A stretch of DNA of 64,000 bases. Origin: a virus. Its lineage: Duplodnaviria; Heunggongvirae; Uroviricota; Caudoviricetes. Under the pieces are notes generated by a model. That model saw only the letters and a list, made by a program, of their open reading frames with translations. It was not told the origin of the DNA and did not search any database. Within the stretch, counting starts at the first letter, position 1. Each line of letters starts with the position of its first letter. Made by a program: the position numbers and the translations under genes. This document shows, in pieces, positions 7,630 through 48,008 of the stretch. The stretch is taken from IMG/VR virus record IMGVR_UViG_3300034107_000364; one strand, given 5' to 3'.

Positions 7630-8322
7630 ATGAAAACACATATAATTTATCTAAGAGGCAATGAATTCTCAGAGACTATGGTAAAAGATACCATAAAGTC
7701 TTTAAATAAATTCGGTATCGAGTTTGAATTATTTGATGGAGTTGTAGGCAGAAAAGGCATTGAAGTTTTAAAATCTTATAATGCAAAACCTTCAGCGTAT
7801 GTTAATATGGTAGATTGGACCGATGGTACTATAGGTTGTTTAGCAAGTCATTATTTATTATGGGACGAGTGTTCTAAACAAGATCAGCCTTTTTTAATTC
7901 TTGAACAAGATGCAGTTTTAGTTAGAGATCCTAGAGAAATATTACACTTAATAGAAAATGCATGTCATTTAGATGCATATTTACCATTTAATAATTCAGG
8001 TTTTATTACAGAACATGAACACTTTGAAGCGTATAATGATGCTATTAAACTTTATACTAGCGGAGTTAAAAAACACCCTATTAGTAGATTTTATGGAGAT
8101 AAATCTATAACTGGAAGTACTTTTAGAGGTGCATATGGATATATAATAACTCCTAAAGGTGCCCAAGAAATCTTAGATTTTATAAATAAAAAAGGTATAT
8201 TTCCAGCAGATGCATGTTTATGTGAAAATGCCACAGATATTCAAAGAGCAAATAGTACATATGTTAGATTAAATCCATTTTTCGAAACATTGGACTTACA
8301 AAGAAAATTTTCATCAAGATAA
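7630..8322 (+). CDS. glycosyltransferase family 25 (LOS/LPS glycosyltransferase, Lic2B/LgtB-like)
   Basis: HIIYLRGNEFSE...GTIGCLASHYLLW...PFLILEQDAVL matches the GT25 signature. Confidence 0.6.
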   Translation: MKTHIIYLRGNEFSETMVKDTIKSLNKFGIEFELFDGVVGRKGIEVLKSYNAKPSAYVNMVDWTDGTIGCLASHYLLWDECSKQDQPFLILEQDAVLVRDPREILHLIENACHLDAYLPFNNSGFITEHEHFEAYNDAIKLYTSGVKKHPISRFYGDKSITGSTFRGAYGYIITPKGAQEILDFINKKGIFPADACLCENATDIQRANSTYVRLNPFFETLDLQRKFSSR

Positions 8323-8326
8323 CCAC

Positions 8327-8400
8327 AGTCATTTAGCTCAGTTGGTTAGAGCGCCTCGCTGATACCGAGGAGGTCGTAAGTTCGAGTCTTACATTGACTA
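8327..8400 (+). tRNA. tRNA-Ile(GAT)
   Basis: D-arm TAGCTCAGTTGGTTAGAGC, anticodon stem CCTCG/CGAGG with loop CTGATAC, T-arm GTAAG-TTCGAGT-CTTAC; starts 5 nt after GT25 stop. Confidence 0.8.
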
Positions 8401-8403
8401 CAT

Positions 8404-8430
8404 AAAAAAAGCCGCAATTGCGGCTTTTTT
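8404..8430 (+). terminator. rho-independent terminator
   Basis: AAGCCGCAATTGCGGCTT hairpin + T6. Confidence 0.7.
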
Positions 8431-8483
8431 AGTTTTATATATTTAAAAGAATATATAGATTATACTCAAAAATTAAAAACAAT

Positions 8484-9515
8484 ATGAAGATTAAAAGTTA
8501 CGAAGGATTTGTTGCTAATAAAAGATTAGTAGAATCTAGAAGACAAGTAATAATTAATGTGCTTGAACAATTCGAAGAAATTAAACCAATTATGAATGAA
8601 GCTCTACTTATAGTTGAGTTTGGTATATTTGATGAGGGTTTTGATAATCTTAACGAAGAAAACCTAATTAGCAAAATGAAGGCTAAATTTGATGCTGCTG
8701 TAGAAGTTGCAAAAGAAAAGGGTAAACAAGCATTGACAAAATCACAAGAAGTTATCATTAAATTAGGTGGTAAAATTGCTTCTATTATTAAACTTATTGT
8801 TGAGAAATTAAAAGAATGGGTTGACGCTGCATGGACAGCTGCAAAATCAGCATATGCATCAGGAGCACAAGCTAAGGTTAAAGAAATTACAGCTGCAATC
8901 GAAAAGAAATCAGAAGAAAGTAAAAATCTTTTATTAAAAGAAGTTAAACAAGGTAAACAAGTTGTATCTGCAACAGTTGGATGGATTACTAGTGGATTTG
9001 TTAAAGATACTGCAACCGCAGCTCAACAAGCCGCAAGTGAAGATGTTAAAGAAGCCTTTGAAATTGCAATATTAGATTCTATTAATGAAGCAGTTATCAA
9101 TGGAGATATTGATTTTACTGATCTATTAAAAGAAAGTGATGCAAATGGACCAAGTATTCCATTCGTATCAGCAATTGCACATAAAATGCACCATATTCCA
9201 CCATTTAATTTATTAGATAAAGTTAAACAAGCTGCTGAAAAAGTTGCTAAAGGAACTCTAGGTAAATTATCATATTATGCTACTGAATTAGCAGGAGCAC
9301 CAGGACCATTTGAATTTATTGCACTTGCAGGTATTATTGGAATTATTGCTGAAGTTCAAGTTAAAGGAGTTGCAAAGCACGCTCTATTACATGCAGTACC
9401 AGGTTTAGGTACGGTAGCATCTATTATATCAAACGTTGCAATGTTATTAGCTGTAATTGGTATCATTGAGGCTGTTATGGGTAAAGAAAAGGATGATGAG
9501 GAAACTGCACACTAA
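8484..9515 (+). CDS. hypothetical protein (343 aa) with CTS-like N-terminus and hydrophobic C-terminal segments
   Basis: MKIKSYEGFVANKRLVE resembles the MKHxKLFEEFxNE leader family; C-terminus GIIGIIAEV...AMLLAVIGIIEAV predicted membrane-active. Confidence 0.55.
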   Translation: MKIKSYEGFVANKRLVESRRQVIINVLEQFEEIKPIMNEALLIVEFGIFDEGFDNLNEENLISKMKAKFDAAVEVAKEKGKQALTKSQEVIIKLGGKIASIIKLIVEKLKEWVDAAWTAAKSAYASGAQAKVKEITAAIEKKSEESKNLLLKEVKQGKQVVSATVGWITSGFVKDTATAAQQAASEDVKEAFEIAILDSINEAVINGDIDFTDLLKESDANGPSIPFVSAIAHKMHHIPPFNLLDKVKQAAEKVAKGTLGKLSYYATELAGAPGPFEFIALAGIIGIIAEVQVKGVAKHALLHAVPGLGTVASIISNVAMLLAVIGIIEAVMGKEKDDEETAH

Positions 9516-9537
9516 TTAAAATAAATTTAAGGTACAT

Positions 9538-9610
9538 AGCGGGTTGGTAGAAGTGGTATCTCGCGAGCCTCATAAGCTCGAGGTCGGGGGTTCGAGTCCC
9601 TCACCCGCAA
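9538..9610 (+). tRNA. tRNA-Met(CAT), atypical D-arm
   Basis: anticodon stem CGAGC/GCTCG with loop CTCATAA, T-arm GGGGG-TTCGAGT-CCCTC, acceptor GCGGGT/ACCCGC with unpaired A1xA72. Confidence 0.6.
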
Positions 9611-9694
9611 CTAATTTCATAACTTCTTAAAATGAATCACATTCATGATATATAATAAAGTACTTATGTACTGATAAAAATATTATAACATGTA

Positions 9695-10006: not shown

Positions 10007-10008
10007 TT

Positions 10009-10754: not shown

Positions 10755-10760
10755 TTAATT

Positions 10761-11366: not shown

Positions 11367-11415
11367 GATGAAACTAAATTGTAATTTTTAATACAATACC
11401 TAAACTATAGTATAA

Positions 11416-11619: not shown

Positions 11620-11671
11620 GCTCTAGGATATATACTATAATAATATAAAACAAAATAAAAAACACTAAATT

Positions 11672-12277: not shown

Positions 12278-12303
12278 TATTAAAACAAATATTTTTTAAA
12301 TTT

Positions 12304-14838: not shown

Positions 14839-15426
14839 TTGAAAGTATTCGTTGCACCGCCGAAAGGTGAAATAGAAGGAAGAGCATATATTGATTGGAT
14901 TATATCAAAGGGTTTTGAACCTATTATGATAGATCTTAGGTATAAAAAGATAGATGCTCCATTAATGTTATGTGGAGGTGCAGATATTGGTAAAAATCCT
15001 GAAAGAGATCGACGTGAACTTGGTTGGATAAAAATGGCATTAGATGCACAACAACCAATTATAGGAGTTTGTCGTGGCATGCAAATATTGAATCACTATT
15101 TTGGTGGTAAGGTTGAAGATCTAAAAGACAGAATAGCAGAATATCATCAAAGTGATGAATTCTCAGATGATGAGGATCATAGTGAAAGAGAATCACAATT
15201 TCATTACATCAAAAATCTAGACGATGTAATGTTTGAAGTTAATTCTAGGCATCATCAATGGTGCTCAATTATTGCAGATAATTTTAACGTGACTCATATG
15301 TCTTTTGATGGTGGTTGGATTCCAGAAGCCATAGAAGATGAAGAACTTAAAATCATTGCAGTTCAATGGCACCCAGAAAGATTTGAGTGCCCAGAGGTAT
15401 TAAATCTATTTAAATATATAAAATAA
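14839..15426 (+). CDS. class I glutamine amidotransferase-like / peptidase C26 (gamma-glutamyl hydrolase-like)
   Basis: LCGGADI, GVCRGMQ (nucleophile Cys), QWHPE (His); TTG start per track. Confidence 0.6.
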   Translation: MKVFVAPPKGEIEGRAYIDWIISKGFEPIMIDLRYKKIDAPLMLCGGADIGKNPERDRRELGWIKMALDAQQPIIGVCRGMQILNHYFGGKVEDLKDRIAEYHQSDEFSDDEDHSERESQFHYIKNLDDVMFEVNSRHHQWCSIIADNFNVTHMSFDGGWIPEAIEDEELKIIAVQWHPERFECPEVLNLFKYIK

Positions 15427-20007: not shown

Positions 20008-20883
20008 ATGGTACAGAAATTAAACTTAGTAGACCTAGAAAATTCAGACATTAAATACAAAATCTCTCGATTTCCTGATGGTCAGCAATCAATCACATTA
20101 GATATGGTTGATGCAGATTTACCAAACAAAATCACAGTAAGTATTACAAGTCGATTTAATTCATTTAAGGATTTAGAAATCATTATTGCTGCTAATCAAG
20201 CACTTCGTGAATTTTCATATGTCGAGAATGTTAAGTTAAATGTACCTTATTTTTTAGGAGCTCGTTCAGATCGTAAATTCGAGGCTGGTACCAGTAACTA
20301 CCTTAAAACAGTTATTTGTCCAATCATCAATGCACAAAACTTCTCAAGAGTGACAGTATTAGATCCTCACTCAGATGTTTTAGAAGCTTGTTTGAATAAC
20401 TATCACAAACACAATAACCATCGTTTGGTTAAAGATGCATTAACAAAGATTGATAATAAAGATGGTGCACAAAGCAGAATCTGTTTAGTAAGTCCAGATG
20501 CTGGCGCTTATAAAAAGATCTTTGATGTTGCAAAAGAATTTAACATTGATAATATTGTTACAGCATCTAAAGTGCGAGATATTAAAACTGGAAAGATTCT
20601 TAGAACTGAGATTCCCACTTTAGATCAACATGCAGATTTAAAGTACGTTATCATTGATGACATTTGTGATGGTGGTAGAACTTTCATTGAATTGGCTAAA
20701 GCTATTAAAGGAAGCCGACCAAGTGCTAAAGTTTATTTAGTAGTAACACATGGTATTTTTAGTGCTGGATTTAAAGAATTATCACAATATTTTGAAGGCA
20801 TCTATACAACAAATAGCTACCGAGAAGTTGCAGATAATGAGTATGGTGAGAACACTAAAACAATTGCATTTAACATATTCTAA
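20008..20883 (+). CDS. ribose-phosphate pyrophosphokinase homolog (PRPP synthetase-like; candidate ADP-ribose pyrophosphate synthetase of NAD+ reconstitution pathway)
   Basis: RFPDGQ..., VPYFLGARSDRK (Prs catalytic flexible loop region), VSPDAGAYKK and IIDDICDGGRTF PRTase type I motif. Confidence 0.7.
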   Translation: MVQKLNLVDLENSDIKYKISRFPDGQQSITLDMVDADLPNKITVSITSRFNSFKDLEIIIAANQALREFSYVENVKLNVPYFLGARSDRKFEAGTSNYLKTVICPIINAQNFSRVTVLDPHSDVLEACLNNYHKHNNHRLVKDALTKIDNKDGAQSRICLVSPDAGAYKKIFDVAKEFNIDNIVTASKVRDIKTGKILRTEIPTLDQHADLKYVIIDDICDGGRTFIELAKAIKGSRPSAKVYLVVTHGIFSAGFKELSQYFEGIYTTNSYREVADNEYGENTKTIAFNIF

Positions 20884-23814: not shown

Positions 23815-24086
23815 TGAATAGAAAAAACGCAACATTATTAATATTAATCTTTGCAGCGCTTGTAGCCTTTGTGGTTACAGGCTGCGAAGGTAATGTACAT
23901 GTTTCAACTAAATCAAATCCACATAAAATGGAACTTGATAGTAATTCACAATACTCTGATCAAAATTATAGAGTCTACACTCTTGAAGGTTGTGAATATA
24001 TTGTAGTCGGAATGGGTAATAACCAATGGGGATCCCATAAAGGAAATTGTAAAAATCCAATACACAAACAAAATGAAAGTAATTAA
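23814..24086 (+). CDS. small lipoprotein
   Basis: signal peptide LLILIFAALVAFVVTGC lipobox. Confidence 0.5.
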   Translation: MNRKNATLLILIFAALVAFVVTGCEGNVHVSTKSNPHKMELDSNSQYSDQNYRVYTLEGCEYIVVGMGNNQWGSHKGNCKNPIHKQNESN

Positions 24087-30400: not shown

Positions 30401-30474
30401 GGGGGTGTAGCTCAGTTGGCTAGAGCATCTGCCTTGCACGCAGAGGGTCGCAGGTTCGATTCCTGTCACCTCCA
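30401..30474 (+). tRNA. tRNA-Ala(TGC)
   Basis: acceptor GGGGGTG/CACCTCC with G3-U70 identity pair, D-arm TAGCTCAGTTGGCTAGAGC, anticodon stem TCTGC/GCAGA with loop CTTGCAC. Confidence 0.85.
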
Positions 30475-30481
30475 CTAAAGA

Positions 30482-36773: not shown

Positions 36774-37194
36774 ACTTAAGATCAATATTGAAGATCTTTA
36801 TATTTCAAAGCCATTAGAAAAAGAAACTTTCCTCAAAGTTATTAATGAGCATCCTAACACAATTCATTCGTTATATTTAATAACGAATGAATTGAAGGCT
36901 ATGCACTATTTCATTTCATTAGAAGATCATCCGCTATATGACGTAAGTGCATATATTAGTGTCCAACATGGATATTGCGGTAAAGCAAAACAACAAATAG
37001 GTGTTGTTAAATCAATGATCGATAAGTACAAACAAAGACCACTATTTTCAATTTCTTATAAGATAATATTAAAAGAGAATGTCAGGGAAGTCTTTTCTTT
37101 TAGACATGTGTGTTCAAGTAAAAAGGAAATATATATGTTAATAGATAAATTTCACAAAAAAACAGAACAATTATGCAAAGCAAATACATTTTAA
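36760..37194 (+). CDS. hypothetical protein (144 aa)
   Basis: ORF. Confidence 0.45.
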   Translation: MLTNRLKINIEDLYISKPLEKETFLKVINEHPNTIHSLYLITNELKAMHYFISLEDHPLYDVSAYISVQHGYCGKAKQQIGVVKSMIDKYKQRPLFSISYKIILKENVREVFSFRHVCSSKKEIYMLIDKFHKKTEQLCKANTF

Positions 37195-38138
37195 AATTAG
37201 GCCAAACTGGTGATCTAGTAAGAGTTCTTCAAGAACTATTAGATCTTAAAGTAGATGGAGAATTTGGTAACGATACGCATGCTGCTGTAATTAAATTTCA
37301 AAAAGCTAATGGTTTAAAAGCAGATGGTACAGTAGGACCATTAACTTGGAAAACTCTTAAATATAATCCACTTGAATTAGATGCTGATACTGATGTTGCC
37401 ACTGGTGCAACATGGATTCAACAACATCTTTTACCAGAAGGTGAATACCTTAAAGAGACAACTCACAAAGAATGGATATTTTTACATCATACCGCAGGTA
37501 GACATAATCCAAAAGATACAATTGACCAATGGGCTAAGGATCAACGTGGTAGAATAGGAACACATTATGTTATTGGTGGAATTCCATCAACTGTAGATAT
37601 GAATAAACTAACAGAAAAAGAATCTGAATGGGATGGTAAAATTTTACAAGCCATTAAAGATGAATATTGGGGTTATCATTTAGGTGCTGTCAAATCTTCA
37701 AAAATGCATAAGGGTTCTATTAGTATAGAAATCTGTTCTGCAGGATGTTTAACAGAAAAAGATGGTAAATATTACACATGGTATGGTGCTCAAGTTCATG
37801 AATCACAAGTCGCAAGATTAGATTCTGAATATAGAGGTTTTAAATATTATCATAAATATTCACCAGAACAAATTAAAGCTACTAAAGCATTATTGTTATT
37901 AATAGCAGATAAACATGGTATTAATTTAAAATCAGGTATAGTTGAAAAATTAACTAGTTCAACAAAACCAGGTATTTCTCAATATTATCCAATTCCTGGT
38001 AATGCTAATGCTTTTGACTATAGCGAAGATGCAAATCTAGGAAAGATCAAAGGTGTATTAACACATGGTCAAGTTAGAAAAGATAAATCAGATGTATTTC
38101 CACAACAAGAATTAATTACAATGCTATTGGGTTTATAA
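37173..38138 (+). CDS. peptidoglycan-binding domain + N-acetylmuramoyl-L-alanine amidase (Amidase_2/PGRP-like)
   Basis: N-terminal PG_binding_1-like LGQTGDLVRVLQELL...GNDTHAAVIKFQKANGL; catalytic region WIFLHHTAG...THYVIGG. Confidence 0.6.
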   Translation: MQSKYILKLGQTGDLVRVLQELLDLKVDGEFGNDTHAAVIKFQKANGLKADGTVGPLTWKTLKYNPLELDADTDVATGATWIQQHLLPEGEYLKETTHKEWIFLHHTAGRHNPKDTIDQWAKDQRGRIGTHYVIGGIPSTVDMNKLTEKESEWDGKILQAIKDEYWGYHLGAVKSSKMHKGSISIEICSAGCLTEKDGKYYTWYGAQVHESQVARLDSEYRGFKYYHKYSPEQIKATKALLLLIADKHGINLKSGIVEKLTSSTKPGISQYYPIPGNANAFDYSEDANLGKIKGVLTHGQVRKDKSDVFPQQELITMLLGL

Positions 38139-38196: not shown

Positions 38197-38403
38197 ATGT
38201 CAGAACAAACAACACAAGAAAAACCACAGGTTTCACCTTTCGAAGAAGTGAAAACTATGACCGATGTACAAGCTCTTAATATTTTAATTCAAGCAGCTAA
38301 TGCAGCTCAAGGAGCAGGAGTATTAAGTGTACGAGATTCAGTATTTGTTGCAGCTGCAGCAGAATTGTTAACAAAACCTTTCACAGATAAAAAAGCTAAA
38401 TAA
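38197..38403 (+). CDS. hypothetical protein (68 aa)
   Basis: ORF. Confidence 0.45.
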   Translation: MSEQTTQEKPQVSPFEEVKTMTDVQALNILIQAANAAQGAGVLSVRDSVFVAAAAELLTKPFTDKKAK

Positions 38404-38792
38404 TGAAAATCGAGGTATCAAACGGAGAGATTATTGATAAATTTACTATTTTAGAAATCAAACTTAAAGAGATTTCTGATCCTGAAAAATTAGCAAACAT
38501 TCAAAAAGAGTATGATTCACTTAAATCTGTCGTAGATCACATCTACAATGAAGCTGATGACTATCGCGAATTAGATGTATTACATAAAGATTTATTTAAT
38601 GTAAATAAAACCCTTTGGAATATTGAAGATATGATTCGTGAATGCGAACGTCGAGAATCATTTGGTGAAGACTTCGTTGAATTGGCAAGATCAGTGTATT
38701 ACACAAATGATGACAGATCTGATGTCAAGAAAAAAATCAATTTGTTAACGGGATCTTTATTTGTAGAAGAGAAATCCTATGAATCATACTAA
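38403..38792 (+). CDS. hypothetical protein (129 aa)
   Basis: ORF. Confidence 0.45.
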   Translation: MKIEVSNGEIIDKFTILEIKLKEISDPEKLANIQKEYDSLKSVVDHIYNEADDYRELDVLHKDLFNVNKTLWNIEDMIRECERRESFGEDFVELARSVYYTNDDRSDVKKKINLLTGSLFVEEKSYESY

Positions 38793-38795
38793 TAC

Positions 38796-41700
38796 ATGTC
38801 AAAACAAGTTGCGATATGTATAGATACACCTGCATTAGGTGACACGATAGCAGCAATTCCTACACTTAGGAAGTTAGCTAAAGCGTGTGAGTCACAACTT
38901 ATAGTATTTTCTAGTAAACCTTTCTTATTTGAGGGTCATCCACTTGTGTCAAAAGCATTAAAGTTGGATGACCCTCTTAGATATGACTCCGACATAAAGG
39001 TTTATCGTACATTTATGCCAATCGTTGGCAAAGCATATGATCTAAGAGGTGAACAAGTAGAATTCAGATCTTCTAATATGGATATTAGACAATTTCATGC
39101 AGTTTCATTAGGGTTTAGTTTAACTCAAGATGAAATGGAAATGGATTTGTATATTGAACGTGAAAGAAATCTTGGATTTGAAAACTATGTTATAATACAC
39201 CCAACTTATACCTGGGCAACTAGAACATGGGATCAAGATAAATGGCAAGAACTTGTTGATAAATTAAATGATAGAGGTATTCCAGTGGTTGCGGTTGGCC
39301 GAGATTCTCATGAATTCGGTACATTCTCAATAGACAAACCCGTAATGGATTTGAATATAAAGCTTGGAGTTAACTTACTTAATGATGCAACAAATGATCC
39401 AGCTGAATTAAGATGGATGATGAATCATAAAGCTAGAGCTATAGTAACTATGGATTCTGGTTTATTGCACATTGCAGGAACTACTGACGTAAATATTATT
39501 CAATTAGGTAGTTCAATAGATCCAAAATTAAGAGCACCTTATAGAAAGGGTTCACAAGATTATAAATACAAATATATTGGTGGAAGTTGCGATATTTTCT
39601 GTTCCAGTAATATGAAATACAATATTATTGAACATGGAACTATTCAAGCTGTTCCGCCACAATTATATTGTTTAGAATATAAACCAACATTCGAGTGTCA
39701 TCCTACAGTAGATAAAACATTCGATGCAGTTATAGATTTGTATAATGACTTATTAGTAGACAATGTCTATATGAAACCTAATACCAAAGAAATGACAAAC
39801 AAAACTAAATTACTATTCTTAGCACCACATTTAAGTACAGGAGGCATGCCTCAATTTGTCTTAAAGAGAGTCGAAGCTATGTTAGATGTAAAAGAATATG
39901 AAATTCACTTAGTAGAGTATACACAATATAGTGATATTTACAATGTGCAACGAGATCAACTTATAGAAAAATTAGGTGCTAGATTTCATTCATTAGGATT
40001 CTTAAATTCAATAGACATTACCGAACGAGGTGAAAGATTAAAGGCAAAGATTTTAGAAATAAACCCAGATATTATTCATATTGATGAATGTCCAGAATCA
40101 TTTGATGGATTTAATAAAATTGATCAAAGTGCAATGGAATGGCTTTACAATAAGCAATGGAAAATTGTAGAAACATCTCACAATATTTGGTTTGATCCAA
40201 ACGATAAGATTAATGATCCAGATATGTACATGATGTGTACTCCATATCATTTAGAAACTTTCGGAAATAGAGATGGTTTAAAACCAGTTGTAGAATATCC
40301 TATATTAAATCAAAAACCTTCAGCGTTTGATAAAGCAAAATCAAGAGCTAAATTAGGTTTAGCCATTGATAAGACACATATATTAAATGTAGGTCTTTGG
40401 ACACAAGGTAAGAATCAAGCAGAAGGTGTTGATATTGCCAGAATAGTTGAAGCTAGATTTCCTGGAAAGTATCAATTTCATTTCGTAGGTAATCAAGCAG
40501 AAAACTTCGAACAATATTGGGGACCAATTATGAAGAAGTTGCCAAGTAATGTTACTGTATGGGGTGAGAGAAACGATGTTGACGTCTTTATGAGTGCATG
40601 TGACGCATTTATGTTTAACTCAACATGGGAGTGTAGTCCACTCGCACTACGTGAAGCAATCGGTCATGGTCTAATCACATTCTCTAGGGACTTAGAGCAA
40701 TATAAAGACATGTTTACACCTTACATTGTCCCATTCACAAACGATCTCCATGAAAATGTTGACCAATTAATCAAAACACTCAAATCATCCGAGGCACAAG
40801 GAAAAAATATCCCAGCTGATGATCTAAAACGTTTCACTGATCAGCATATCCAATGGTACCAACAATGTTTAACTACCCCACGAGGCCCTCAAAAAGCTCC
40901 GATATACAAACAACCTGAATGGACATTAGAATATCAAGATGGTCCGAAATTAACGATCAAGGAAACTGGAGGCACTCAATTACGGGCCGAGTTCTACGAT
41001 CATGAAGATCTAGTATGGAACGCAACAGACTTACAGGCAGGAAACTGGTACAAGCCCGCAAGAAATTGGTGGACTCAGTGGACTGTTAAGGTTTACAGTA
41101 ATGACCAACTAGTTCATTCAGAACGTCTGAGCCTTGAAGGCCAGGAACTTACAGTGGAAATGGCAAGTTCATCACTTGGAGACACATTGAGCTTCATGGG
41201 ACAGCTGCACACAGTGATAGACACACATAAGCTATCACGATTATATGTGAAGACACACAAACCCTGGCTGTTTGACAAAGCATGGTATAGCTCAAAGGGC
41301 ATAGACATCATTGACTGGTCAGTGCCTAACAAGGGTGCGCTAATCACTATCGGAGTCTTTTACACCATGGAAGAACCATGGAAACGTTCAGAACATAAAT
41401 ACGACTGGAGGACTATACCTCTGGGGAAAATCGCCTCAGATCGCTTAGGTACTGAGTACGTAGAACAAAGACCTCAACTAGCGCGCGAATTCTTGATCAA
41501 GTCTACTGCAAAAAAACGCTCTATTGTAATCGCTACCCAAAGTACAGCGCAAGCTAAGTACTGGAATAATCCTACTGGATGGCAAGAAACAATTGACTGG
41601 TGTAATAGTAAAGAGATTAGTGTGTACCATGCTAGTAAAGAAGGTAGTCAATTAAAAGGAGTTAAACAATTGCCAGAAGAGTTGGCATTAGTAGCAGGAG

Positions 41701-42002
41701 CTATTAATGAAGCCGAACTGTTTATTGGAATTTCCTCTGGCTTATCTTGGTTCGCATGGGCACTTGGAGCCAAAGTAATTGTTATTAGTGGCTTTACAGA
41801 TCCTTATGTGGAATTTGAATCAGCTATCTATATTAACAATCATAAAGTATGTCATGGTTGTTGGGGTTGGGATACATTTGACAAAGGTGACTGGAATTGG
41901 TGCCCTTTATGGAAAGGAACACATCGTCAATTTGAGTGTACTAAAACCATTGGATCAGACAGAGTTATTGCTGTCATAAATAAAGAATTATATGGAGAAT
42001 AG
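38796..42002 (+). CDS. giant multidomain glycosyltransferase: GT9(heptosyltransferase-like)-GT4-GT9
   Basis: N-term ICIDTPALGDTIAAIPTLRKL (GT9), middle LFLAPHLSTGGMPQFV ... FMFNSTWECSPLALREAIGHGL (GT4 E-x7-E region), C-term MASSSLGDTLSFMGQL ... GISSGLSWFAWALGAKVIV (second GT9). Confidence 0.6.
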   Translation: MSKQVAICIDTPALGDTIAAIPTLRKLAKACESQLIVFSSKPFLFEGHPLVSKALKLDDPLRYDSDIKVYRTFMPIVGKAYDLRGEQVEFRSSNMDIRQFHAVSLGFSLTQDEMEMDLYIERERNLGFENYVIIHPTYTWATRTWDQDKWQELVDKLNDRGIPVVAVGRDSHEFGTFSIDKPVMDLNIKLGVNLLNDATNDPAELRWMMNHKARAIVTMDSGLLHIAGTTDVNIIQLGSSIDPKLRAPYRKGSQDYKYKYIGGSCDIFCSSNMKYNIIEHGTIQAVPPQLYCLEYKPTFECHPTVDKTFDAVIDLYNDLLVDNVYMKPNTKEMTNKTKLLFLAPHLSTGGMPQFVLKRVEAMLDVKEYEIHLVEYTQYSDIYNVQRDQLIEKLGARFHSLGFLNSIDITERGERLKAKILEINPDIIHIDECPESFDGFNKIDQSAMEWLYNKQWKIVETSHNIWFDPNDKINDPDMYMMCTPYHLETFGNRDGLKPVVEYPILNQKPSAFDKAKSRAKLGLAIDKTHILNVGLWTQGKNQAEGVDIARIVEARFPGKYQFHFVGNQAENFEQYWGPIMKKLPSNVTVWGERNDVDVFMSACDAFMFNSTWECSPLALREAIGHGLITFSRDLEQYKDMFTPYIVPFTNDLHENVDQLIKTLKSSEAQGKNIPADDLKRFTDQHIQWYQQCLTTPRGPQKAPIYKQPEWTLEYQDGPKLTIKETGGTQLRAEFYDHEDLVWNATDLQAGNWYKPARNWWTQWTVKVYSNDQLVHSERLSLEGQELTVEMASSSLGDTLSFMGQLHTVIDTHKLSRLYVKTHKPWLFDKAWYSSKGIDIIDWSVPNKGALITIGVFYTMEEPWKRSEHKYDWRTIPLGKIASDRLGTEYVEQRPQLAREFLIKSTAKKRSIVIATQSTAQAKYWNNPTGWQETIDWCNSKEISVYHASKEGSQLKGVKQLPEELALVAGAINEAELFIGISSGLSWFAWALGAKVIVISGFTDPYVEFESAIYINNHKVCHGCWGWDTFDKGDWNWCPLWKGTHRQFECTKTIGSDRVIAVINKELYGE

Positions 42003-42879
42003 AAAAGCTGTAGTTACAGGTGGAGCTGGTTTTATTGGTTCATATCTGGTTAAAGAATTACTAAACAATGGATGGTCAGTAATTGTACTTGATAATTTTA
42101 GTACTGGTGACATGGACAATTTAGAACCACATCCAAATTTAATTATTGAAGCTACTGATATTATTAGTAGTAAATTGCCAACTTATAAATTTGATACTCT
42201 ATTTCATTTAGCTGCACCGATTAGTGTACCTGAAAGCATAGAACAACCAATGAAATATTGGAATGGCATATGTGTTGCAAGTAGAAGAGTTATGAGTTGG
42301 GCTTATGAAATGGGAGCTACTTCAATGGTAGCTGCATCCACTGCTGCGGTCTATGGTGATTCAGAACAAGTGCCATTAAAAGAGAGTGATACACCTAATC
42401 CGATGAGTCCTTATGCCGAATTTAAATTGGAAATGGAACACATGATGATGAGTTATAATAAACCTCAGTTTAAGTGTACAGCTCTAAGATTTTTTAATGT
42501 CTTTGGTGAAGGTCAAAGGGCTACTGGTGGATACCGAAGTGCAGTGCCCATATTCTTACAACAATATGAATCTTATCAACCTATTACCGTAACTGGTGAT
42601 GGCACACAAACTAGAGATTGGATTTATGTTAAAGATGTGGTAAATGCTATTATAATGAGTAGTCAGGCCGAATTTAAGACCACTATGCCAATTTATAATG
42701 TTGGATCTGGTACAGAAACTCAAGTTATTGAAGTGGCTGAGGCATTTGGTGGTGAAATCAAACATGTAGAAAAAAGAGAGGAACCTATGCGTTCCGCTGC
42801 AGATATTACAAAAATCACTAGGCAATTAGGTTGGAAACCAGAAACAAACCTATTATCCTGGATAAAATCAATTAAATGA
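41992..42879 (+). CDS. NAD-dependent sugar epimerase/dehydratase (SDR family, UDP-sugar 4-epimerase-like)
   Basis: VTGGAGFIGS Rossmann motif, YAEFK (YxxxK). Confidence 0.7.
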   Translation: MENRKAVVTGGAGFIGSYLVKELLNNGWSVIVLDNFSTGDMDNLEPHPNLIIEATDIISSKLPTYKFDTLFHLAAPISVPESIEQPMKYWNGICVASRRVMSWAYEMGATSMVAASTAAVYGDSEQVPLKESDTPNPMSPYAEFKLEMEHMMMSYNKPQFKCTALRFFNVFGEGQRATGGYRSAVPIFLQQYESYQPITVTGDGTQTRDWIYVKDVVNAIIMSSQAEFKTTMPIYNVGSGTETQVIEVAEAFGGEIKHVEKREEPMRSAADITKITRQLGWKPETNLLSWIKSIK

Positions 42880-43481
42880 AACAAATAAAAAACATAATTG
42901 CAATAACGTTCCTAACATTATTGTTAATTACAAGTGCAAATGCACAAACAGGTCTTGCAAATGTTAAAATCAAAACGAGTATATTTGAAATTGAATATTC
43001 TCAAAGATTTCAACAACCTTTGGTTATTAAATATAAAGTTCAATGCCCAACTGGTGATGAAGAAAGAGATGGTATGTCATTTAAGAAATGGACAGGTGTT
43101 GTAACAAGTGACGATGATGACTATGTTGATAATATATGGGACAAAGGTCATATGGCACCTGCTGGTGCATTTACATGTAATATAACTAATTTACGAAATA
43201 CATTCTCTTATTTAAATTGTGCATTACAACATGAATCATTAAATAGAGGACCATGGAAAGAACTAGAACATTTTGAAAAGGATTTATCAAAAGTATTTTC
43301 AAATGTAACTATAGAAATTAGAGTACATTTTCTAGATAAACCTCAAAATTGGTTAAGTACTGGAGCATTAGTACCAATAGGATTTACAAAAATAATTAGA
43401 GTTAATAATAATAAATTTGAATTTTATTTTCCAAACATTAACTCAACTGGACATGACTGGATTGAATATAAAATCAATTAG
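42876..43481 (+). CDS. secreted DNA/RNA non-specific endonuclease (Serratia/EndoG family)
   Basis: signal peptide IIAITFLTLLLITSANA; DKGHMAPAG (DRGH motif) and NCALQHESLNRGPW (Mg-binding Asn region). Confidence 0.6.
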   Translation: MKQIKNIIAITFLTLLLITSANAQTGLANVKIKTSIFEIEYSQRFQQPLVIKYKVQCPTGDEERDGMSFKKWTGVVTSDDDDYVDNIWDKGHMAPAGAFTCNITNLRNTFSYLNCALQHESLNRGPWKELEHFEKDLSKVFSNVTIEIRVHFLDKPQNWLSTGALVPIGFTKIIRVNNNKFEFYFPNINSTGHDWIEYKIN

Positions 43482-43554: not shown

Positions 43555-43845
43555 ATGAGCACTACAGAAAAATTTCTAATGCTATTTTCAGACTTCGAGA
43601 TGATCGTTGTTGAAAAAACGAATGAGGTAAAAATAGACAAGAGTAATACTCAACATTCGATTGGCGCTAATCAAACAAAGAGTGAACTAAAGAAAGTACT
43701 TAAGCGATTGACTGAAGAATACAGCAGAGCTAAAAAGTCATTTAAACAAAATAAATTAAGTCGTCAAGAATTATTTGATTTCGAATGGAGATTATTTGAA
43801 ATACAAGAAGAGATTAAAAGATTAGATGACGAAACTGCGGCATAA
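43555..43845 (+). CDS. hypothetical coiled-coil protein (96 aa)
   Basis: ORF. Confidence 0.45.
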   Translation: MSTTEKFLMLFSDFEMIVVEKTNEVKIDKSNTQHSIGANQTKSELKKVLKRLTEEYSRAKKSFKQNKLSRQELFDFEWRLFEIQEEIKRLDDETAA

Positions 43846-44333
43846 TGAAACACCTAAAAAAATATGATCAATTTATCAACGAGAAATATCTAGACACTAG
43901 ATATTCAGCTGGTCTTGCGATTGTGTTTGATGGTAAAATTTTGTTAGGTCAATCTAGAGGTAGAAAAGAAGGAACTGGTTATGGTATATCTAAAGGTGGC
44001 ATCGAAGAAGGTGAATCACATTTAGATGCTGCTATCAGAGAAACTTATGAAGAGTTCGGTATTAAAGTTCCTAAATCTTTAATAAGTAAAATTGAACGTA
44101 CATTTGTTTTAACTTCTAGAAAGTATAAGTATAATAAAGTTATTTATTATTTTATAGTTGAAATAGATGACCTGTCTAAAATAGGACTTAAAGATCTAGT
44201 GGTACCTAAAGGGCAATTACAGCGTGAAGAAATTGATAATGCCAAATTTATGGACAAAATAGAAGCTTCACAAGTTATAATGTTAAGTCAACAAGTGGTT
44301 CTACAAAATTTAAGTGCAATGGGACTAATATGA
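43845..44333 (+). CDS. Nudix hydrolase with CTS-like N-terminal leader
   Basis: Nudix box GGIEEGESHLDAAIRETYEEFGI; N-terminus MKHLKKYDQFINE. Confidence 0.65.
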   Translation: MKHLKKYDQFINEKYLDTRYSAGLAIVFDGKILLGQSRGRKEGTGYGISKGGIEEGESHLDAAIRETYEEFGIKVPKSLISKIERTFVLTSRKYKYNKVIYYFIVEIDDLSKIGLKDLVVPKGQLQREEIDNAKFMDKIEASQVIMLSQQVVLQNLSAMGLI

Positions 44334-44885: not shown

Positions 44886-44915
44886 ACATTATTAGATTTT
44901 TAAGTATAAGCTAAG

Positions 44916-45515
44916 ATGAAACACGTTAAAAATTACACAGAATACCTAAATGAGGTAAACAGAGCTGGAAAACCATATCATGGTTCCAAGATTCTTGTGT
45001 TTGATCTTGACGATACTTTAGTAATTTCATCAGCAAAAATAAAGGTTTGCAATAAGAAAACAGGAGAATGTTATTCACTGACTCCAGAAGAATTTAATAG
45101 TTATGAAAAACATGCAGATCATGAATTAAACTTTGATGAATTTAAATCATTAGAGATTATGAAAGCTGGTCAAATGATTGAACATTACTTAGACATATTT
45201 AAAGAAGCTTATAAATCACGCATCGCAGTTGGAATTGTTACAGCAAGAGATGATAGAGAAATGATTTATAGATGGTTAAGAGAACATGTTGGATTTAGAA
45301 TCGACAAAGATCTTATTTTTGCAGTGAATGATTCAGTACATAAATTCAAAGGTAGTATATCGGATCGTAAAAAACAAGCGTTTAGAGAATTGATCGATAT
45401 GGGTTACAGTGACCTACAATTTTACGATGATGATGAGGCTAATTTAGTATTAGTAAAATCATTAGAACAAGAACATGAAGGAATACAAATATCAACAATT
45501 AGAGCATACAAATAA
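44916..45515 (+). CDS. HAD-superfamily phosphatase with CTS-like leader
   Basis: leader MKHVKNYTEYLNE; HAD motif I FDLDDTL, motif II VTAR, motif IV YDDDEAN. Confidence 0.6.
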   Translation: MKHVKNYTEYLNEVNRAGKPYHGSKILVFDLDDTLVISSAKIKVCNKKTGECYSLTPEEFNSYEKHADHELNFDEFKSLEIMKAGQMIEHYLDIFKEAYKSRIAVGIVTARDDREMIYRWLREHVGFRIDKDLIFAVNDSVHKFKGSISDRKKQAFRELIDMGYSDLQFYDDDEANLVLVKSLEQEHEGIQISTIRAYK

Positions 45516-45517
45516 AT

Positions 45518-47059
45518 ATGAGTACATTTAAAGACATTAGAAATAATTTTCAAATAGCAATGGATAAAGCTATTCATGAATCAAAACAACCAACTAAAAA
45601 AGCAATTGAAGAGTTTTGGCTAGAAGGTTTTAAAAAGTTTATGAATTCTAAAGATTTTGCTGGTGTTTCCAGTAGAATAAGTGGAACAGGTGAAGTGTTA
45701 AGAGCAAATTTCGGCGCAAATGACGGAACGGCAGAAACTAAAATTATAGAATTTCTTAAAGAAGTAGGTGGTATTGATCCATCGTCTTATAGTATAGAAT
45801 TTAAACAACAAGGAATTGTTTCTAGTGATTTCGCAGGATATACAATAATTTTCAATACTAAAGTATCAGATGCTTTAGGTAAAGATTATAAAAAAGGAGA
45901 CTTTATAACAATTACCAATAGATTTAAAGTTAATAAAAAAGGAGAGCAGGGTGTTGTTGGTAGAAAAGATCTTACACCTGATAATCTAGGTATAACAAAA
46001 AACATATATCAATCAGCTGAAAGTTTATTTGCAGTTGTCTCTCCGGCTATATCTAATAGCAGTTTACCAGAAAACTATAAAAAATGTTTTATTACAGTAA
46101 CTGAATCTATTATGAATAATTCATCAAATAAAAATAAATTTAAAGATTTTGATGCTTATTTAGCAGCTGGAGTACATGACATATCTTATAGTGTTGACAA
46201 TAATATATTTGAGGGTATTGATCCTATTTCAATCCAACATTTCCAAAATGATTACGGAGAAATATTAGGAGGCTTTATGTTTTTTAATATACTTCAATCA
46301 TATGGTGTGGGATTATCTTATCCAAAATCATCTAATGAAAAATTAGTAGATTTTTATTTTAGCGGATATTCTATTTCTTCAAAAGGCGGAAAAGGAGGAA
46401 CACCGAGTGGAGATACTATAATTCAAAAAATATACCAAGCCAAACAAGATTCTTTAATACAAGCAGAAACTGCACTAGAATCAGATTTCCTTACTAATGT
46501 TGTAGAGCAGTGGGTTAATCCTCCTAAATTAGCTAGAAGTGGTACTTATGACAATATAATGAATTTGTGTAATGTTAATATAAAAGATCATTCAAATTCA
46601 GGATATTGGCTTCTTTGTTCAGAATCTAAATTAGATCCCTCGATGCTAACTCAAGATGCTGTTGTTAGTTTTCTAGATATATTATACGATTCTAATGTAG
46701 ATGAATTTAGCAATTTCATATCTAAATTATGGGATTTGAGTAAAATGCAATGGAATAAAGCTAAATTAAATGAGATGATAAAGTCATATCCTACAATGGG
46801 TAAAAACAAAATTGGAATAGTATTTTATGCTTTAATGGTTGAAATAGCTACATTATTAACTAATACGTATTCTAATGAATTATCTAAATTTGGAAGAATG
46901 GTAACAGATGTAAAACAATTATATTTAGATGTTTCTGTAAACAAAGGAACTCTTATATTTAAAACAATACCATTTAAATCAGCTAACTTTCAATTTGAAC
47001 AAAAAGGAAGTATGCCTAACCCATTTAATGCTAATATGGGAATAAAAGTAATTAAGTAA
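45518..47059 (+). CDS. hypothetical protein (513 aa)
   Basis: ORF. Confidence 0.5.
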   Translation: MSTFKDIRNNFQIAMDKAIHESKQPTKKAIEEFWLEGFKKFMNSKDFAGVSSRISGTGEVLRANFGANDGTAETKIIEFLKEVGGIDPSSYSIEFKQQGIVSSDFAGYTIIFNTKVSDALGKDYKKGDFITITNRFKVNKKGEQGVVGRKDLTPDNLGITKNIYQSAESLFAVVSPAISNSSLPENYKKCFITVTESIMNNSSNKNKFKDFDAYLAAGVHDISYSVDNNIFEGIDPISIQHFQNDYGEILGGFMFFNILQSYGVGLSYPKSSNEKLVDFYFSGYSISSKGGKGGTPSGDTIIQKIYQAKQDSLIQAETALESDFLTNVVEQWVNPPKLARSGTYDNIMNLCNVNIKDHSNSGYWLLCSESKLDPSMLTQDAVVSFLDILYDSNVDEFSNFISKLWDLSKMQWNKAKLNEMIKSYPTMGKNKIGIVFYALMVEIATLLTNTYSNELSKFGRMVTDVKQLYLDVSVNKGTLIFKTIPFKSANFQFEQKGSMPNPFNANMGIKVIK

Positions 47060-47261
47060 TTGATGAATCCTCAAGAGTGGCAACATTATGTAGACAAAGG
47101 TGAGGTTCCAATGCATTTTTTCAAATCAATGGTAGAATCTCTTAAGAAAGGTGAAAGGCTAAATGGTCAACATTTAGCGGTTTACCAATCTCATGGACCA
47201 ATCATTGAAATGATGTTACGCAAAAAATAAACTATTTCTACCATTTTCATATAAATTATAA

Positions 47262-48008
47262 ATGGAAAATTACACATATATTTTAGGTCCTTGTAGCATT
47301 GAAAGCGAGGACAACTTCACAGAAGTAGCAAATGCACTATATCCTATAATGCAAGGAAAAGATTGGTATCTTAAAGGTAGCTTTGATAAAGCCAATCGAA
47401 CTTCAATTCATTCTAATCGAGGTCCGGGTTTAGACGAAGGTATCGAGATTATGCGAAATGTCAAAGCTAAATTTCCAGGTCTTAAAATCGTTACAGATAT
47501 TCACACAGCAGATCAAGCATTACCATTATCAGATGTAGTAGATGTGATTCAAATTCCAGCATTCTTATGTAGACAAACAGATCTTCTTATAGAATGTGCA
47601 AAACACTTTAATATTATCAACGTTAAGAAGGGTCAGTGGTTATCTGCTGATGCAATGAAACATGCTGTTACCAAGATTAAAGAAGTAAATCCAACATGTC
47701 AAGTATGGATTACTGAACGTGGTACTCAATTTGGTTTTGATAGGTTAATTGTAGATTTCAGAGGAGTTGATGTAATGAAACAATTTGCAGATAAAGTTAT
47801 CTTTGATTGTACGCACTCAACTCAAATGTCAGGTGATGGTATTACAGGTGGAAGTAGAAAACTTGCAAAGCAATATTCTTTAGCTGCACGTATTTTTGAG
47901 TATGATGGAGTATTTATTGAAACACATCCAGATCCTGATAATGCCATCTCAGATGCAGCTAGTCAAGTAGAATTGGATTGGATGGTAGAAAATCTAAAAA
48001 ACATTTAA
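47262..48008 (+). CDS. kdsA: 3-deoxy-D-manno-octulosonate 8-phosphate synthase-like (KdsA/DAHP synthase family)
   Basis: LGPCSIESE, KGSFDKANRTS, IQIPAFLCRQTDLL, NVKKGQ, FDCTHSTQ conserved blocks. Confidence 0.7.
   Translation: MENYTYILGPCSIESEDNFTEVANALYPIMQGKDWYLKGSFDKANRTSIHSNRGPGLDEGIEIMRNVKAKFPGLKIVTDIHTADQALPLSDVVDVIQIPAFLCRQTDLLIECAKHFNIINVKKGQWLSADAMKHAVTKIKEVNPTCQVWITERGTQFGFDRLIVDFRGVDVMKQFADKVIFDCTHSTQMSGDGITGGSRKLAKQYSLAARIFEYDGVFIETHPDPDNAISDAASQVELDWMVENLKNI

Follow-up and report, generated by a model that had tools for sequence, protein, structure and literature searches.

The window analysed here is a stretch of 64,000 nucleotides from a virus of the Caudoviricetes (IMG/VR record IMGVR_UViG_3300034107_000364), which carries at 38796-42002 on the + strand a gene for a fusion protein of 1068 residues, in which Pfam recognizes two GT9 glycosyltransferase stretches and a GT4 domain at residues 513-671. 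The gene belongs to a set of glycan genes, a phage "toolkit", that had been listed in an earlier note made from the sequence alone. All of the genes named there were found on the + strand where they had been placed, and they look intact; the GT25, GT32, tri-domain GT9-GT4-GT9, sugar epimerase and KdsA (3-deoxy-8-phosphooctulonate (Kdo-8-P) synthase) genes all pass Pfam thresholds, and KdsA passes an NCBIfam threshold as well. The window encodes six sugar-transferase domains (one GT25, one GT32-like, three in the fusion and one of GT-A fold), and a seventh, of family PF11397, lies past its end. The toolkit genes are spread across 45 kb, and only 38403-43481 is a tight, overlapping operon, consisting of the genes for a DUF6165 protein, the fusion, an SDR epimerase and a non-specific endonuclease, all four of which overlap or abut (Table 1).

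The tri-domain fusion and its operon

Exactly the same fusion protein is encoded on nine independent contigs and full-length homologs with 48-96% identity are numerous, so that an assembly artefact can be dismissed. By sequence model, fold and active-site residues, its C-terminal domain is a catalytic domain of the BAHT family, the family of TibC and Aah. It passes the NCBIfam model TIGR04414 (autotransporter strand-loop-strand O-heptosyltransferase) with 208 bits over residues 730-1063, albeit by a narrow margin (cutoff 200), and homologs of the fusion have been named likewise by the Joint Genome Institute. In a phmmer comparison, residues 701-1063 match residues 15-385 of TibC (PDB 4rap) with an E-value of 3e-31. 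The AlphaFold2 model of the whole fusion (predicted local distance difference test (pLDDT) 76, predicted template-modelling score (pTM) 0.43) has strands at residues 708-777 followed by a GT-B domain, and its best Foldseek match is again TibC 4rap (TM-score 0.8 on the target, E-value 5e-23), with the GT4 enzymes BshA and WaaG next.

The earlier note had regarded GT9, GT25 and KdsA as hallmarks of core synthesis for lipopolysaccharide (LPS) or lipooligosaccharide (LOS). For the key enzyme the scores point elsewhere, as the 208 bits of its C-terminal GT9 domain on the TibC/Aah model stand against 28-50 bits on LPS models with cutoffs of 135-467. No LPS heptosyltransferase equivalog was passed, neither RfaC (45.7 bits, cutoff 437) nor RfaQ (35.6, cutoff 467), nor heptosyltransferases I (49.8, cutoff 185), II (28.2, cutoff 135) and III (29.8, cutoff 170); among GT9 models, the general Pfam GT9 model was passed. 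By the tests available, and as far as sequence models can tell, the assignment of the fusion to LPS-core synthesis does not hold.

The residues with assigned roles in TibC (PMC4358343) were traced in an alignment of 117 sequences, including TibC and the window protein. The catalytic base Asp-110 of TibC corresponds to D796, the beta-phosphate ligands Thr-226 and Lys-230 to T917 and K921, the heptose-O4 contact Trp-305 to W985, and the cysteines of the putative iron finger (Cys-339, 342, 358 and 370) to C1019, C1022, C1036 and C1048, and every one of these residues is invariant throughout the alignment. At the position of TibC Pro-300, which is involved in stereoselectivity, 113 of the 117 sequences have Ser, as does Aah. 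The domain is also a compositional outlier inside the fusion gene, with a G+C content of 0.415 and a third-position G+C content of 0.35, compared to 0.34 and 0.20-0.23 for the rest of the gene and a G+C content of 0.326 for the window, possibly reflecting later acquisition of the BAHT domain.

Canonical catalytic motifs are kept in the other two domains too, and in all three they are conserved across homologs. The N-terminal domain, aligned with WaaC and WaaF, shows G15-D16, R143 and the D220-S-G-x-x-H motif, and is about 70% identical across distant relatives. The GT4 domain, for which BshA and WaaG are the Foldseek matches, has an E612-x7-E620 motif of which E612 is invariant and E620 is present in at least 90% of the sequences. 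Neither the BAHT domain nor the N-terminal GT9 domain nor DUF6165 is represented by a family in PHROGs.

The small DUF6165 protein encoded directly upstream has 40 invariant residues, and a profile search against PDB returned no solved relative, only a coiled-coil artefact. Downstream, the start of the SDR gene overlaps the end of the fusion gene by 11 nt (41992-42002). The SDR protein has the GGAGFIG Rossmann motif and the sequence Y-A-E-F-K. Its best PDB matches are UDP-HexNAc/UDP-Glc 4-epimerases and UXS1, and in PHROGs it matches phrog_540 (nucleotide-sugar epimerase). It fails the GalE equivalog, its best NCBIfam model, with 174.8 bits against a cutoff of 262.3. The gene order in this phage and its relatives is endolysin, an open reading frame (ORF) of 68 residues, DUF6165, fusion, FkbM methyltransferase, SDR and non-specific endonuclease, except that the FkbM gene, which lies between fusion and SDR in most relatives (e.g. 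L001:13205-13975), is missing in this phage. Relatives carry extra genes (cytidylyltransferase-like, 4HBT) between the endonuclease and Nudix genes. A tblastn search of the window with KdsB (from a phage), FkbM and cytidylyltransferase sequences found nothing.

Table 1. Glycan-related genes, fusion domains and candidate acceptors, with window coordinates
Feature	Coordinates	Strand	Basis
Putative glycosyltransferase of GT-A fold (GT8/GT24-like), 314 aa	2344..3288	+	Predicted structure and invariant residues
GT25-family glycosyltransferase, 230 aa	7630..8322	+	Pfam PF01755 (Glyco_transf_25), 78.9 bits, cutoff 24
GT32-like (Gly_transf_sug) DXD glycosyltransferase, 214 aa	15650..16294	+	Pfam PF04488, 45.7 bits, cutoff 23
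Possible SGNH/GDSL esterase (weak call), 243 aa	28263..28994	+	Pfam Lipase_GDSL_2, 24.4 bits, below gathering score 32.9
DUF6165 protein, helical, 129 aa	38403..38792	+	Pfam DUF6165 in identical gene on related contigs; 4 nt upstream of fusion
Fusion domain 1, LPS-heptosyltransferase-like GT9, aa 1-~320	38796..39755	+	Pfam GT9; RfaC/RfaQ/WaaF models 28-46 bits, far under cutoffs
Fusion domain 2, GT4 (GT-B), aa ~336-695	39801..40880	+	Pfam Glycos_transf_1, Glyco_trans_1_4
Fusion domain 3, TibC/Aah-type (BAHT), N-terminal beta-barrel and putative Cys4 iron finger, aa ~700-1068	40896..42002	+	TIGR04414
Extended-SDR nucleotide-sugar 4-epimerase-like enzyme, 295 aa	41992..42879	+	Pfam Epimerase, 173 bits
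KdsA, Kdo-8-P synthase, metal-dependent class, 248 aa	47262..48008	+	NF003543, 288 bits, cutoff 242
PT-rich (PTATPVPAPTAT) and Ser/Gly-rich linker protein, candidate glycan acceptor, 559 aa	61422..63101	+	Sequence
SprB-repeat domain followed by long PT-rich linker, candidate glycan acceptor, 450 aa in this variant	63127..64000 (runs past window end)	+	Sequence; weak Pfam SprB match on full gene

Relatives in other viruses and the candidate acceptors

The fusion belongs to a large family, with matches in more than 1295 protein clusters and relatives encoded on at least 591 IMG/VR viral contigs. Its architecture is modular: the N-terminal GT9 domain is followed either directly or after an inserted FkbM methyltransferase, GT8, GT34 or unknown domain by the GT4 and BAHT domains, sometimes with a C-terminal FkbM domain, and forms with GT4 and BAHT only also exist. 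Such modularity fits a diversifying surface glycan.

To describe the gene neighbourhood, ORFs were called and clustered in 85 loci, representing 31 lineages at 70% identity of the GT4-BAHT part. DUF6165, FkbM methyltransferases and SDRs are the steadiest neighbours. FkbM was found in 23 loci, DUF6165 adjoining the fusion in 22 (11 of the 31 lineages), small SprB/Ig-like proteins with proline-threonine (PT) linkers in 21, PF11397 transferases in 16, SDRs in 14, adenosine phosphosulfate (APS) kinases in 12, LamG proteins matching a "virion structural protein" PHROG in 11 and sulfotransferases in ten; collagen-like proteins are encoded there as well. Pfam annotation of the 149 ORFs closest to the gene (within 1.6 kb) gives a concordant result. 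The PT-linker genes lie only 20-30 bp upstream of the fusion gene in several loci. The pairs of sulfotransferase and APS kinase beside the fusion in other phages suggest that some of the glycans are sulfated. Two small helical proteins, DUF6165 (11 of 31 lineages) and DUF4254 (six of 31), repeatedly accompany GT9-type genes (loci L037-L116), and genes resembling nicotinamide mononucleotide (NMN) adenylyltransferase also lie near the fusion in other phages.

A collagen-like ORF lies within 1.5 kb of the fusion gene in 17 of the 85 loci (six lineages), within 3 kb in nine lineages and within 10 kb in 38 loci (14 lineages). A collagen-like or PT-rich ORF is present at 0-1.5 kb in 33% of the loci, a share that declines to 9% at 7.5-10.5 kb. 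The neighbouring collagens are remarkably uniform: in their 12,386 triplets, the X position is Thr (75%) or Ser (18%) and the Y position mostly Ser (59%) or Asn (30%), with only about 0.3% Pro. Their C-terminal domains match phage-only PHROG families, and the collagen stretches match tail-fibre families weakly. Similar collagen-like proteins of up to about 3000 residues are encoded beside GT4-BAHT genes in other viral contigs.

A T4-like relative (L005), with a fusion 53% identical to that of the window, carries the cassette between its head genes and the gene for the tail sheath. The SDR there resembles HldD, scoring 177 bits on the heptose epimerase model and 44 bits on GalE, which gives some support to heptose as the sugar in at least this lineage; rfaE has been reported in pelagimyophages (PMC7029224). 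We considered whether the cytidylyltransferase-like genes near the fusion in other phages could supply an ADP-heptose synthase domain and dropped the idea, as the one in L001 is ambiguous (rfaE domain II 49 bits, TagD 48 bits) and a cluster found in 12 loci looks like NMN adenylyltransferase. The proposal that the 1192-residue and 513-residue proteins of the window are the counterparts of the large neighbour and the sheath of L005 was likewise rejected, as no similarity was found. The 1192-residue protein (48848-52426) has no family match and contains three tandem copies of about 38 residues near its C-terminus (EGNAFGAARAKAIADGAKEFEFEGETYKVED...).

In the phage itself, the PT-rich proteins that the earlier note had seen at 61-64 kb are indeed present in the sequence; the first has no Pfam or PHROG family. 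The lengths of the PT repeats vary between near-identical assemblies of the same phage, giving 559 or 552 residues for the first protein and 450 or 364 for the SprB-repeat protein. On contigs of the same phage that extend past the window end, these genes are followed by one for a collagen-like protein of 1294 residues (about 64500-68384 in window-equivalent coordinates; L120:9082-12966, L014:17445-21329; Pfam Collagen 384 bits). About 900 of its residues are Gly-X-Y, nearly all GTS, GTN or GSS, and essentially proline-free. The same protein is a dense array of N-G-S/T sequons. Then come a 906-residue protein with a vWA-like motif seen by eye and, directly after this fibre cluster, a 415-residue transferase of the PF11397 N-acetylglucosamine (GlcNAc) type (about 71222-72469; L120:15804-17051).

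PF11397 is the family of the Skp1 hydroxyproline GlcNAc-transferase, which glycosylates protein in the cytoplasm, and its members were found beside GT4-BAHT genes in 16 other loci. In two lineages 2-oxoglutarate (2OG)-Fe(II) oxygenases are encoded beside GT4-BAHT genes, and the two kinds of neighbour together hint at hydroxyproline glycosylation of PT linkers. The general O-glycosylation system of Bacteroidetes is periplasmic and recognizes the motif D-(S/T)-(A/I/L/V/M/T); modification of the PT linkers by that system was rejected, as the linkers read D-P-T.

Inspection of the PT-rich, SprB-like and collagen-like proteins revealed no signal peptide at the N-terminus, so that their glycosylation would be cytoplasmic and precede virion assembly. 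We propose that the function of the fusion is cytoplasmic O-glycosylation of the phage's own Ser/Thr-rich virion fibre proteins, a reading to which we give an even chance. The earlier note had listed virion-protein glycosylation among its candidates and suggested the PT-rich fibre proteins as substrates; this is the candidate favoured by the BAHT identity of domain 3 and by the fibre-gene neighbourhoods.

The BAHT substrates known so far are repetitive adhesins destined for secretion, which receive their sugars on Ser while still in the cytoplasm (PMC4358343). By analogy with TibC acting on TibA, the fusion could modify surface proteins of the host or of the phage before export, such as SprB-like proteins or cargo of type 9 secretion, thereby changing the cell surface, gliding or the exposure of receptors. 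SprB-repeat proteins and proteins with CHU_C, a type 9 secretion sorting domain, are encoded by the phage and its relatives, which agrees with such a role. We regard it nevertheless as quite improbable, in view of the missing signal peptides, of the phage-only C-terminal domains and weak tail-fibre matches of the collagen-like neighbours elsewhere, and of the absence of an autotransporter domain among the window proteins scanned.

KdsA, the remaining genes and the presumed host

All sizeable ORFs of the window are on the + strand, and its G+C content is about 32.6%. The same sequence is present on a metagenome contig of 260,917 bp, both ends of which map inside the window, indicating a genome of about 261 kb that is circularly permuted or terminally redundant. 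A megablast search of the region 38-48.5 kb against 50,697 phage records gave no match, and no isolate phage is similar at the DNA level; a tblastn search of phage records with the fusion gave partial matches only (Microcystis phage Mel-JY01 and uncultured huge phages). The phage and its relatives encode SprB-repeat, CHU_C and Hc1 domains, and the 18 relatives of KdsA in reference genomes, found by a scan for shared peptide words that is biased by its nature, are all from Flavobacteriaceae or Flavobacteriales (Maribacter, Croceitalea, Lutibacter; 40-46% identity). Based on these domains and relatives, the host is probably a marine member of the Flavobacteriia (Bacteroidota).

The KdsA protein aligns end to end, from residue 1, with the Aquifex aeolicus KDO8PS and keeps the Cys, His, Glu and Asp metal ligands. 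In addition to passing NF003543, it scores 272 bits on TIGR01362, below the cutoff of 314. It has no PHROG family. The gene is variable among relatives and absent from the examined stretch of one of them (L016). None of the Pfam families that would complete a Kdo pathway (KdsD, KdsC, KdsB and Kdo transferase) was found among the annotated genes of the window region, which covers 64 kb of the genome of about 261 kb. Among isolate phages KdsA is rare. Only 13 records gave a match, most of them for phages of Gram-positive hosts and resembling 3-deoxy-arabino-heptulosonate 7-phosphate (DAHP) synthase; the unambiguous example is Synechococcus phage S-SCSM2R, in which KdsA is accompanied by KdsB (PMC12801897).

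Such genes in cyanophages, pelagimyophages and huge phages are by standard read as serving the host envelope (PMC12801897, PMC7029224 and PMC10747093). Applied to this phage, GT9, GT4, GT25 and KdsA would act on the lipid A-Kdo core or another envelope glycolipid in the course of a long jumbo-phage infection, blocking superinfection, keeping the outer membrane intact or altering grazing and recognition. KdsA, as a genuine and intact Kdo-8-P synthase, is in line with this, as are the flavobacterial affiliation of all genome relatives found, the closeness of the N-terminal GT9 domain to RfaC, RfaQ and WaaF, the resemblance of the GT4 fold to WaaG and the fact that GT25 is best known from LOS galactosyltransferases (Pfam description). 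The fusion, however, stays far from every LPS heptosyltransferase equivalog (e.g. 45.7 versus 437 bits) and passes the protein-glycosylating BAHT model, KdsB, Kdo transferase and lipid-linked machinery are lacking from the window, and the steadiest neighbours of the fusion family are methyltransferases, SDRs, fibre-like proteins and cytoplasmic protein transferases instead of LPS genes. We therefore judge envelope remodelling or maintenance unlikely as the explanation. Remodelling of host LPS, as suggested in the earlier note, may still occur, mainly through KdsA.

The remaining transferases are scattered. The ORF at 2344, which the earlier note had listed as a possible glycosyltransferase, matches nothing in Pfam, PHROGs or NCBIfam; its start was taken at 2344 because the longest ORF, from 2305, overlaps a tRNA-Thr gene. 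Its AlphaFold2 model (pLDDT 94.9, pTM 0.93) matches only GT-A enzymes of PDB in Foldseek (UGGT, XXYLT1, glycogenin, LgtC and PBCV-1 A64R; probability 1.0, TM-score 0.45-0.54), among them entry 2P6W, the glycosyltransferase domain of A064R from chlorovirus PBCV-1. In an alignment of 48 sequences, comprising the window protein and 47 of 64 collected homologs, D111-x-D113, H132, E134 and H268 are invariant. The predicted fold and these residues support the protein as one of glycosyltransferase fold, as the earlier note had surmised, and make it a sixth transferase domain.

The GT25 gene is embedded in the tRNA array, between tRNA-Ser and tRNA-Ile, and its protein matches no NCBIfam equivalog. E92-Q-D94 replaces the usual acidic pair (D-D), and E92, D94, H74, H113, D115 and D194 are invariant in 75 homologs; since E92 and D94 are among them, the enzyme is probably active. 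The protein matches phrog_61 ("2OG-Fe(II) oxygenase") at positions 55-131 of that family, and also matches DNA of Synechococcus phage S-CAM9 that lies beside a gene for a 2OG oxygenase. In cyanophages, a GT25-like domain thus seems to be fused to or located beside oxygenases, recalling the pairs of collagen lysyl-hydroxylase and glycosyltransferase. A link to the collagen galactosylation performed by vertebrate GT25 enzymes is a lead only, the phage collagen having almost no Lys.

In the GT32-like protein D92-I-D94 is present, the match to TcdA/TcdB is weak, and no PHROG family was found. Its gene is adjoined by one for a class I glutamine amidotransferase-like protein (14839-15426), with a weak best NCBIfam match to gamma-glutamyl-CDP-amidate hydrolase of the Campylobacter capsule phosphoramidate pathway (53 bits, cutoff 250). 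Of the SGNH esterase claimed in the earlier note, the N-terminal GDS and C-terminal D-K-S-H (DxxH) motifs can be seen, but the Pfam score lies under the gathering threshold.

Several further genes accompany this set. The window has 25 tRNA genes (1760-9611 and 30401-30475) and encodes a DNA ligase, an NAD salvage set of a ribose-phosphate diphosphokinase-like protein, nicotinamide phosphoribosyltransferase and Nudix hydrolase (20008-20883, 22330-23814 and 43845-44333), and three different peptidoglycan hydrolases in 45 kb (phage lysozyme, 10009-10467; a protein with PG_binding_1 and Amidase_2 domains, 37173-38138; glucosaminidase, 52626-53213). A sigma-70 factor of the extracytoplasmic function type (880-1494) and a 57-residue Hc1 histone-like protein (30004-30177) are also phage-encoded.

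With tRNA, ligase, NAD-salvage and lysis genes interspersed over 45 kb, it may be that there is no single system, that ORF 2344, GT25, the GT32-like enzyme, the esterase and KdsA serve unrelated purposes, and that only the operon of DUF6165, fusion and SDR is a functional unit. The variability of KdsA among relatives, including its absence from the stretch of L016, speaks for this, as does the rarity of GT25 (no match) and GT32 (one match) alongside the fusion in 80 other viral loci. We consider this alternative somewhat unlikely. It limits the scope of fibre glycosylation and not its mechanism, so that the two are not really exclusive, and the seventh transferase beside the fibre cluster suggests that several transferases converge on the same kind of target.

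Glycosylation of DNA is a frequent role of phage transferases (10.1101/2023.12.21.572611), and the earlier note had named DNA sugar modification as a third candidate; one or more transferases would then protect the phage DNA from restriction by glycosylating its modified bases. The gene at 24073-24543, which resembles that of a nucleoside 2-deoxyribosyltransferase, could be placed in such a scheme. The window proteins scanned, however, include no hydroxymethylase, no TET/5mYOX and no T4-type alpha- or beta-glucosyltransferase family, and the BAHT, GT9, GT25 and GT32 families have no known DNA substrates. Hypermodification genes being absent from the annotated genes of the window, this candidate is left without support there, and we consider it highly improbable.

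Proposed function and comparison with known systems

Under the proposal of fibre glycosylation, the fusion would work in the cytoplasm, assembling a short O-linked glycan on proteins of the phage. The TibC/Aah-type domain would prime Ser (or Thr) of low-complexity structural proteins with a first sugar, probably a heptose or another sugar from a nucleotide donor, and the GT4 and N-terminal GT9 domains would extend the glycan, in an arrangement that recalls the WaaF and then WaaG steps of the LPS inner core. The adjacent SDR would provide an epimerised nucleotide sugar. The likely acceptors would be the protein with PT and Ser/Gly linkers, the SprB protein with its PT linker and the proline-free collagen-like protein of 1294 residues. 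If BclA and the glycosylated Thr of invertebrate collagen are a guide, the glycan would stabilise or hydrate the proline-free triple helix, and could shield the exposed fibres or add to their diversity. Further sugars, on the same targets or on others, plausibly come from the scattered GT25, GT32-like, GT-A (2344) and PF11397 transferases, and KdsA may raise the supply of Kdo-8-P, either for fibre glycans or for host LPS.

Several observations weigh against this proposal. The acceptors, the sugars and the purpose are deduced from homology, motif conservation and gene neighbourhood alone. Arg-286 of TibC, which contacts adenine N1 and confers ADP-sugar specificity, is replaced by Val (99), Thr (15) or Ile (2) in the 117 sequences, TibC itself having the sole Arg, at a site beside an indel where the position is slightly uncertain. 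The beta-hairpin thumb that builds the TibC dodecamer (Phe-265/Val-266) is about 11 residues shorter in every phage homolog. Both differences make the donor and the oligomeric state uncertain, and either may differ from TibC. It is also uncertain whether the presumed Flavobacteriia host makes ADP-heptose, and the SDR of the window is GalE-like and not HldD-like. KdsA has no obvious place in protein glycosylation and, with neither KdsB nor a Kdo transferase in the window, fits a supply for host LPS at least as well.

Gene neighbourhood likewise has its limits as evidence for fibre glycosylation. In the present genome the fusion gene is separated by 19-22 kb from the genes for the candidate acceptors instead of adjoining them, and a collagen-like or PT-rich neighbour is present in fewer than half of the lineages. 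The probability of finding at least nine of the 31 lineages by chance ranges from 1e-5 to 9e-3 at assumed base rates of 5-12%, a rough estimate, since the lineages are not fully independent. Moreover, transferases and tail-fibre genes share hypervariable regions in T4-like marine phages (PMC7029224), so that the linkage of fusion and fibres may reflect genome plasticity and not function.

In its boldest form, the proposal would hold that the proline-free (Gly-Thr-Ser/Asn)n fibres, of up to about 3000 residues, of many large aquatic phages fold and persist only by means of a coat laid on Ser/Thr in the cytoplasm by a modular phage enzyme derived from TibC. The oligosaccharide of this coat would resemble the LPS inner core (heptose-heptose-hexose, with varying methylation or sulfation and perhaps Kdo), the fibre would be glycan-stabilised and mimic the host surface, and most "LPS biosynthesis" genes of marine phages would be devoted to virion glycosylation. 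We think it unlikely that this extension is correct.

Transferases of environmental phages are routinely filed as auxiliary genes altering host LPS or protecting DNA. If members of this very common family do glycosylate the phage's own fibres, this habit of annotation needs revising, and virion glycosylation, for which mycobacteriophages and chloroviruses have so far provided most of the demonstrated cases, would also be a feature of abundant aquatic phages whose hosts are Gram-negative. It would also explain the stability of proline-free collagen-like fibres, and would provide a compact, soluble and modular enzyme for protein O-glycosylation, possibly useful for glycoengineering.

As a category, the toolkit is already known. 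The "LPS" gene sets of phages have been described in cyanophages (PMC12801897), environmental viral genomes (PMC5332604) and pelagimyophages (PMC7029224), an annotated "heptosyltransferase I" occurs in wastewater huge phages (PMC10747093), and moraphages of Flavobacteriia have four core transferase groups, with virion glycosylation mentioned as a possibility (PMC12619734). Such sets have been read as modifying host LPS and in some cases as glycosylating DNA (PMC12801897, PMC7029224 and PMC12619734). The earlier note had called the toolkit unusual, which is true of KdsA among isolates, with its 13 records, but not of the set, as LPS-type sets and KdsA are already reported in large marine phages (PMC12801897, PMC5332604, PMC7029224 and PMC12619734). 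A full-text literature search with three terms returned no paper linking TibC-type enzymes with phages, and neither a BAHT-type domain nor an association with collagen-like proteins was mentioned in the text covered by that search and by a term search of PMC7029224. The tri-domain enzyme with its BAHT-type domain, the modular family to which it belongs and its association with PT-linker proteins and proline-free collagen-like proteins seem not to have been described before.

With the "LPS" or "cell-wall modification" sets of large marine phages the window shares many transferases, nucleotide-sugar enzymes and, as in some of them, KdsA; these sets also include transferases beside tail-fibre genes, and their predicted hosts include Flavobacteriia (PMC12801897, PMC7029224 and PMC12619734). 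S-SCSM2R, with KdsA and 13 transferases (PMC12801897), differs from the window in having KdsB. In comparison with Escherichia coli WaaC/WaaF (GT9) and WaaG (GT4), the domain families of the fusion match the order heptose, heptose, hexose, and the GD, DSGxxH and ExxxxxxxE motifs are present; the E. coli enzymes, however, are separate proteins acting on Kdo2-lipid A at the membrane, and the fusion domains score far below every equivalog cutoff.

A064R of chlorovirus PBCV-1 is a multi-domain enzyme with two transferase domains and a methyltransferase, which builds the capsid glycan. It resembles the fusion, as proposed here, in being a virus-encoded, cytoplasmic, multi-domain enzyme for glycan assembly on the virus's own structural protein, and in its association with methyltransferase modules, fused or adjacent (FkbM in the relatives of this phage). 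It differs in coming from a eukaryotic virus, in having GT-A domains, in making N-linked glycans on the major capsid protein and in lacking any sequence relationship.

The virions of mycobacteriophages are glycosylated by phage-encoded transferases, which place shielding O-glycans on virion proteins (Freeman et al. 2023, as cited in PMC12619734); the fusion would act likewise, judging from its gene neighbourhood. The mycobacteriophage transferases belong to different families, the hosts are actinobacterial, and the acceptors are the C-terminal tails of capsid and tail-tube proteins, as shown experimentally. For the collagen-like acceptor, the closest parallel is BclA of the exosporium of Bacillus anthracis/cereus, a glycosylated, prokaryotic, Thr-rich Gly-X-Y protein whose O-linked sugars are thought to aid the hydration and stability of the triple helix (PMC8968730). 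Unlike the phage collagen, BclA has GPT-type repeats with proline, is located on the spore surface and is modified by unrelated rhamnose/anthrose enzymes.

TibC and Aah themselves (PDB 4RAP/4RB4) are bacterial enzymes, act on an autotransporter substrate that has no counterpart here, and have neither the two additional transferase domains nor the Val in place of Arg-286 and the hairpin shortened by about 11 residues. What domain 3 of the fusion has in common with them is the family model that it passes, the fold of a beta-barrel joined to GT-B, the catalytic Asp, the Thr and Lys ligands, the Trp, the Cys4 finger and, as in Aah, a Ser at the position of TibC Pro-300, and, as with them, its predicted site of action is the cytoplasm and its predicted target Ser in repetitive proteins.

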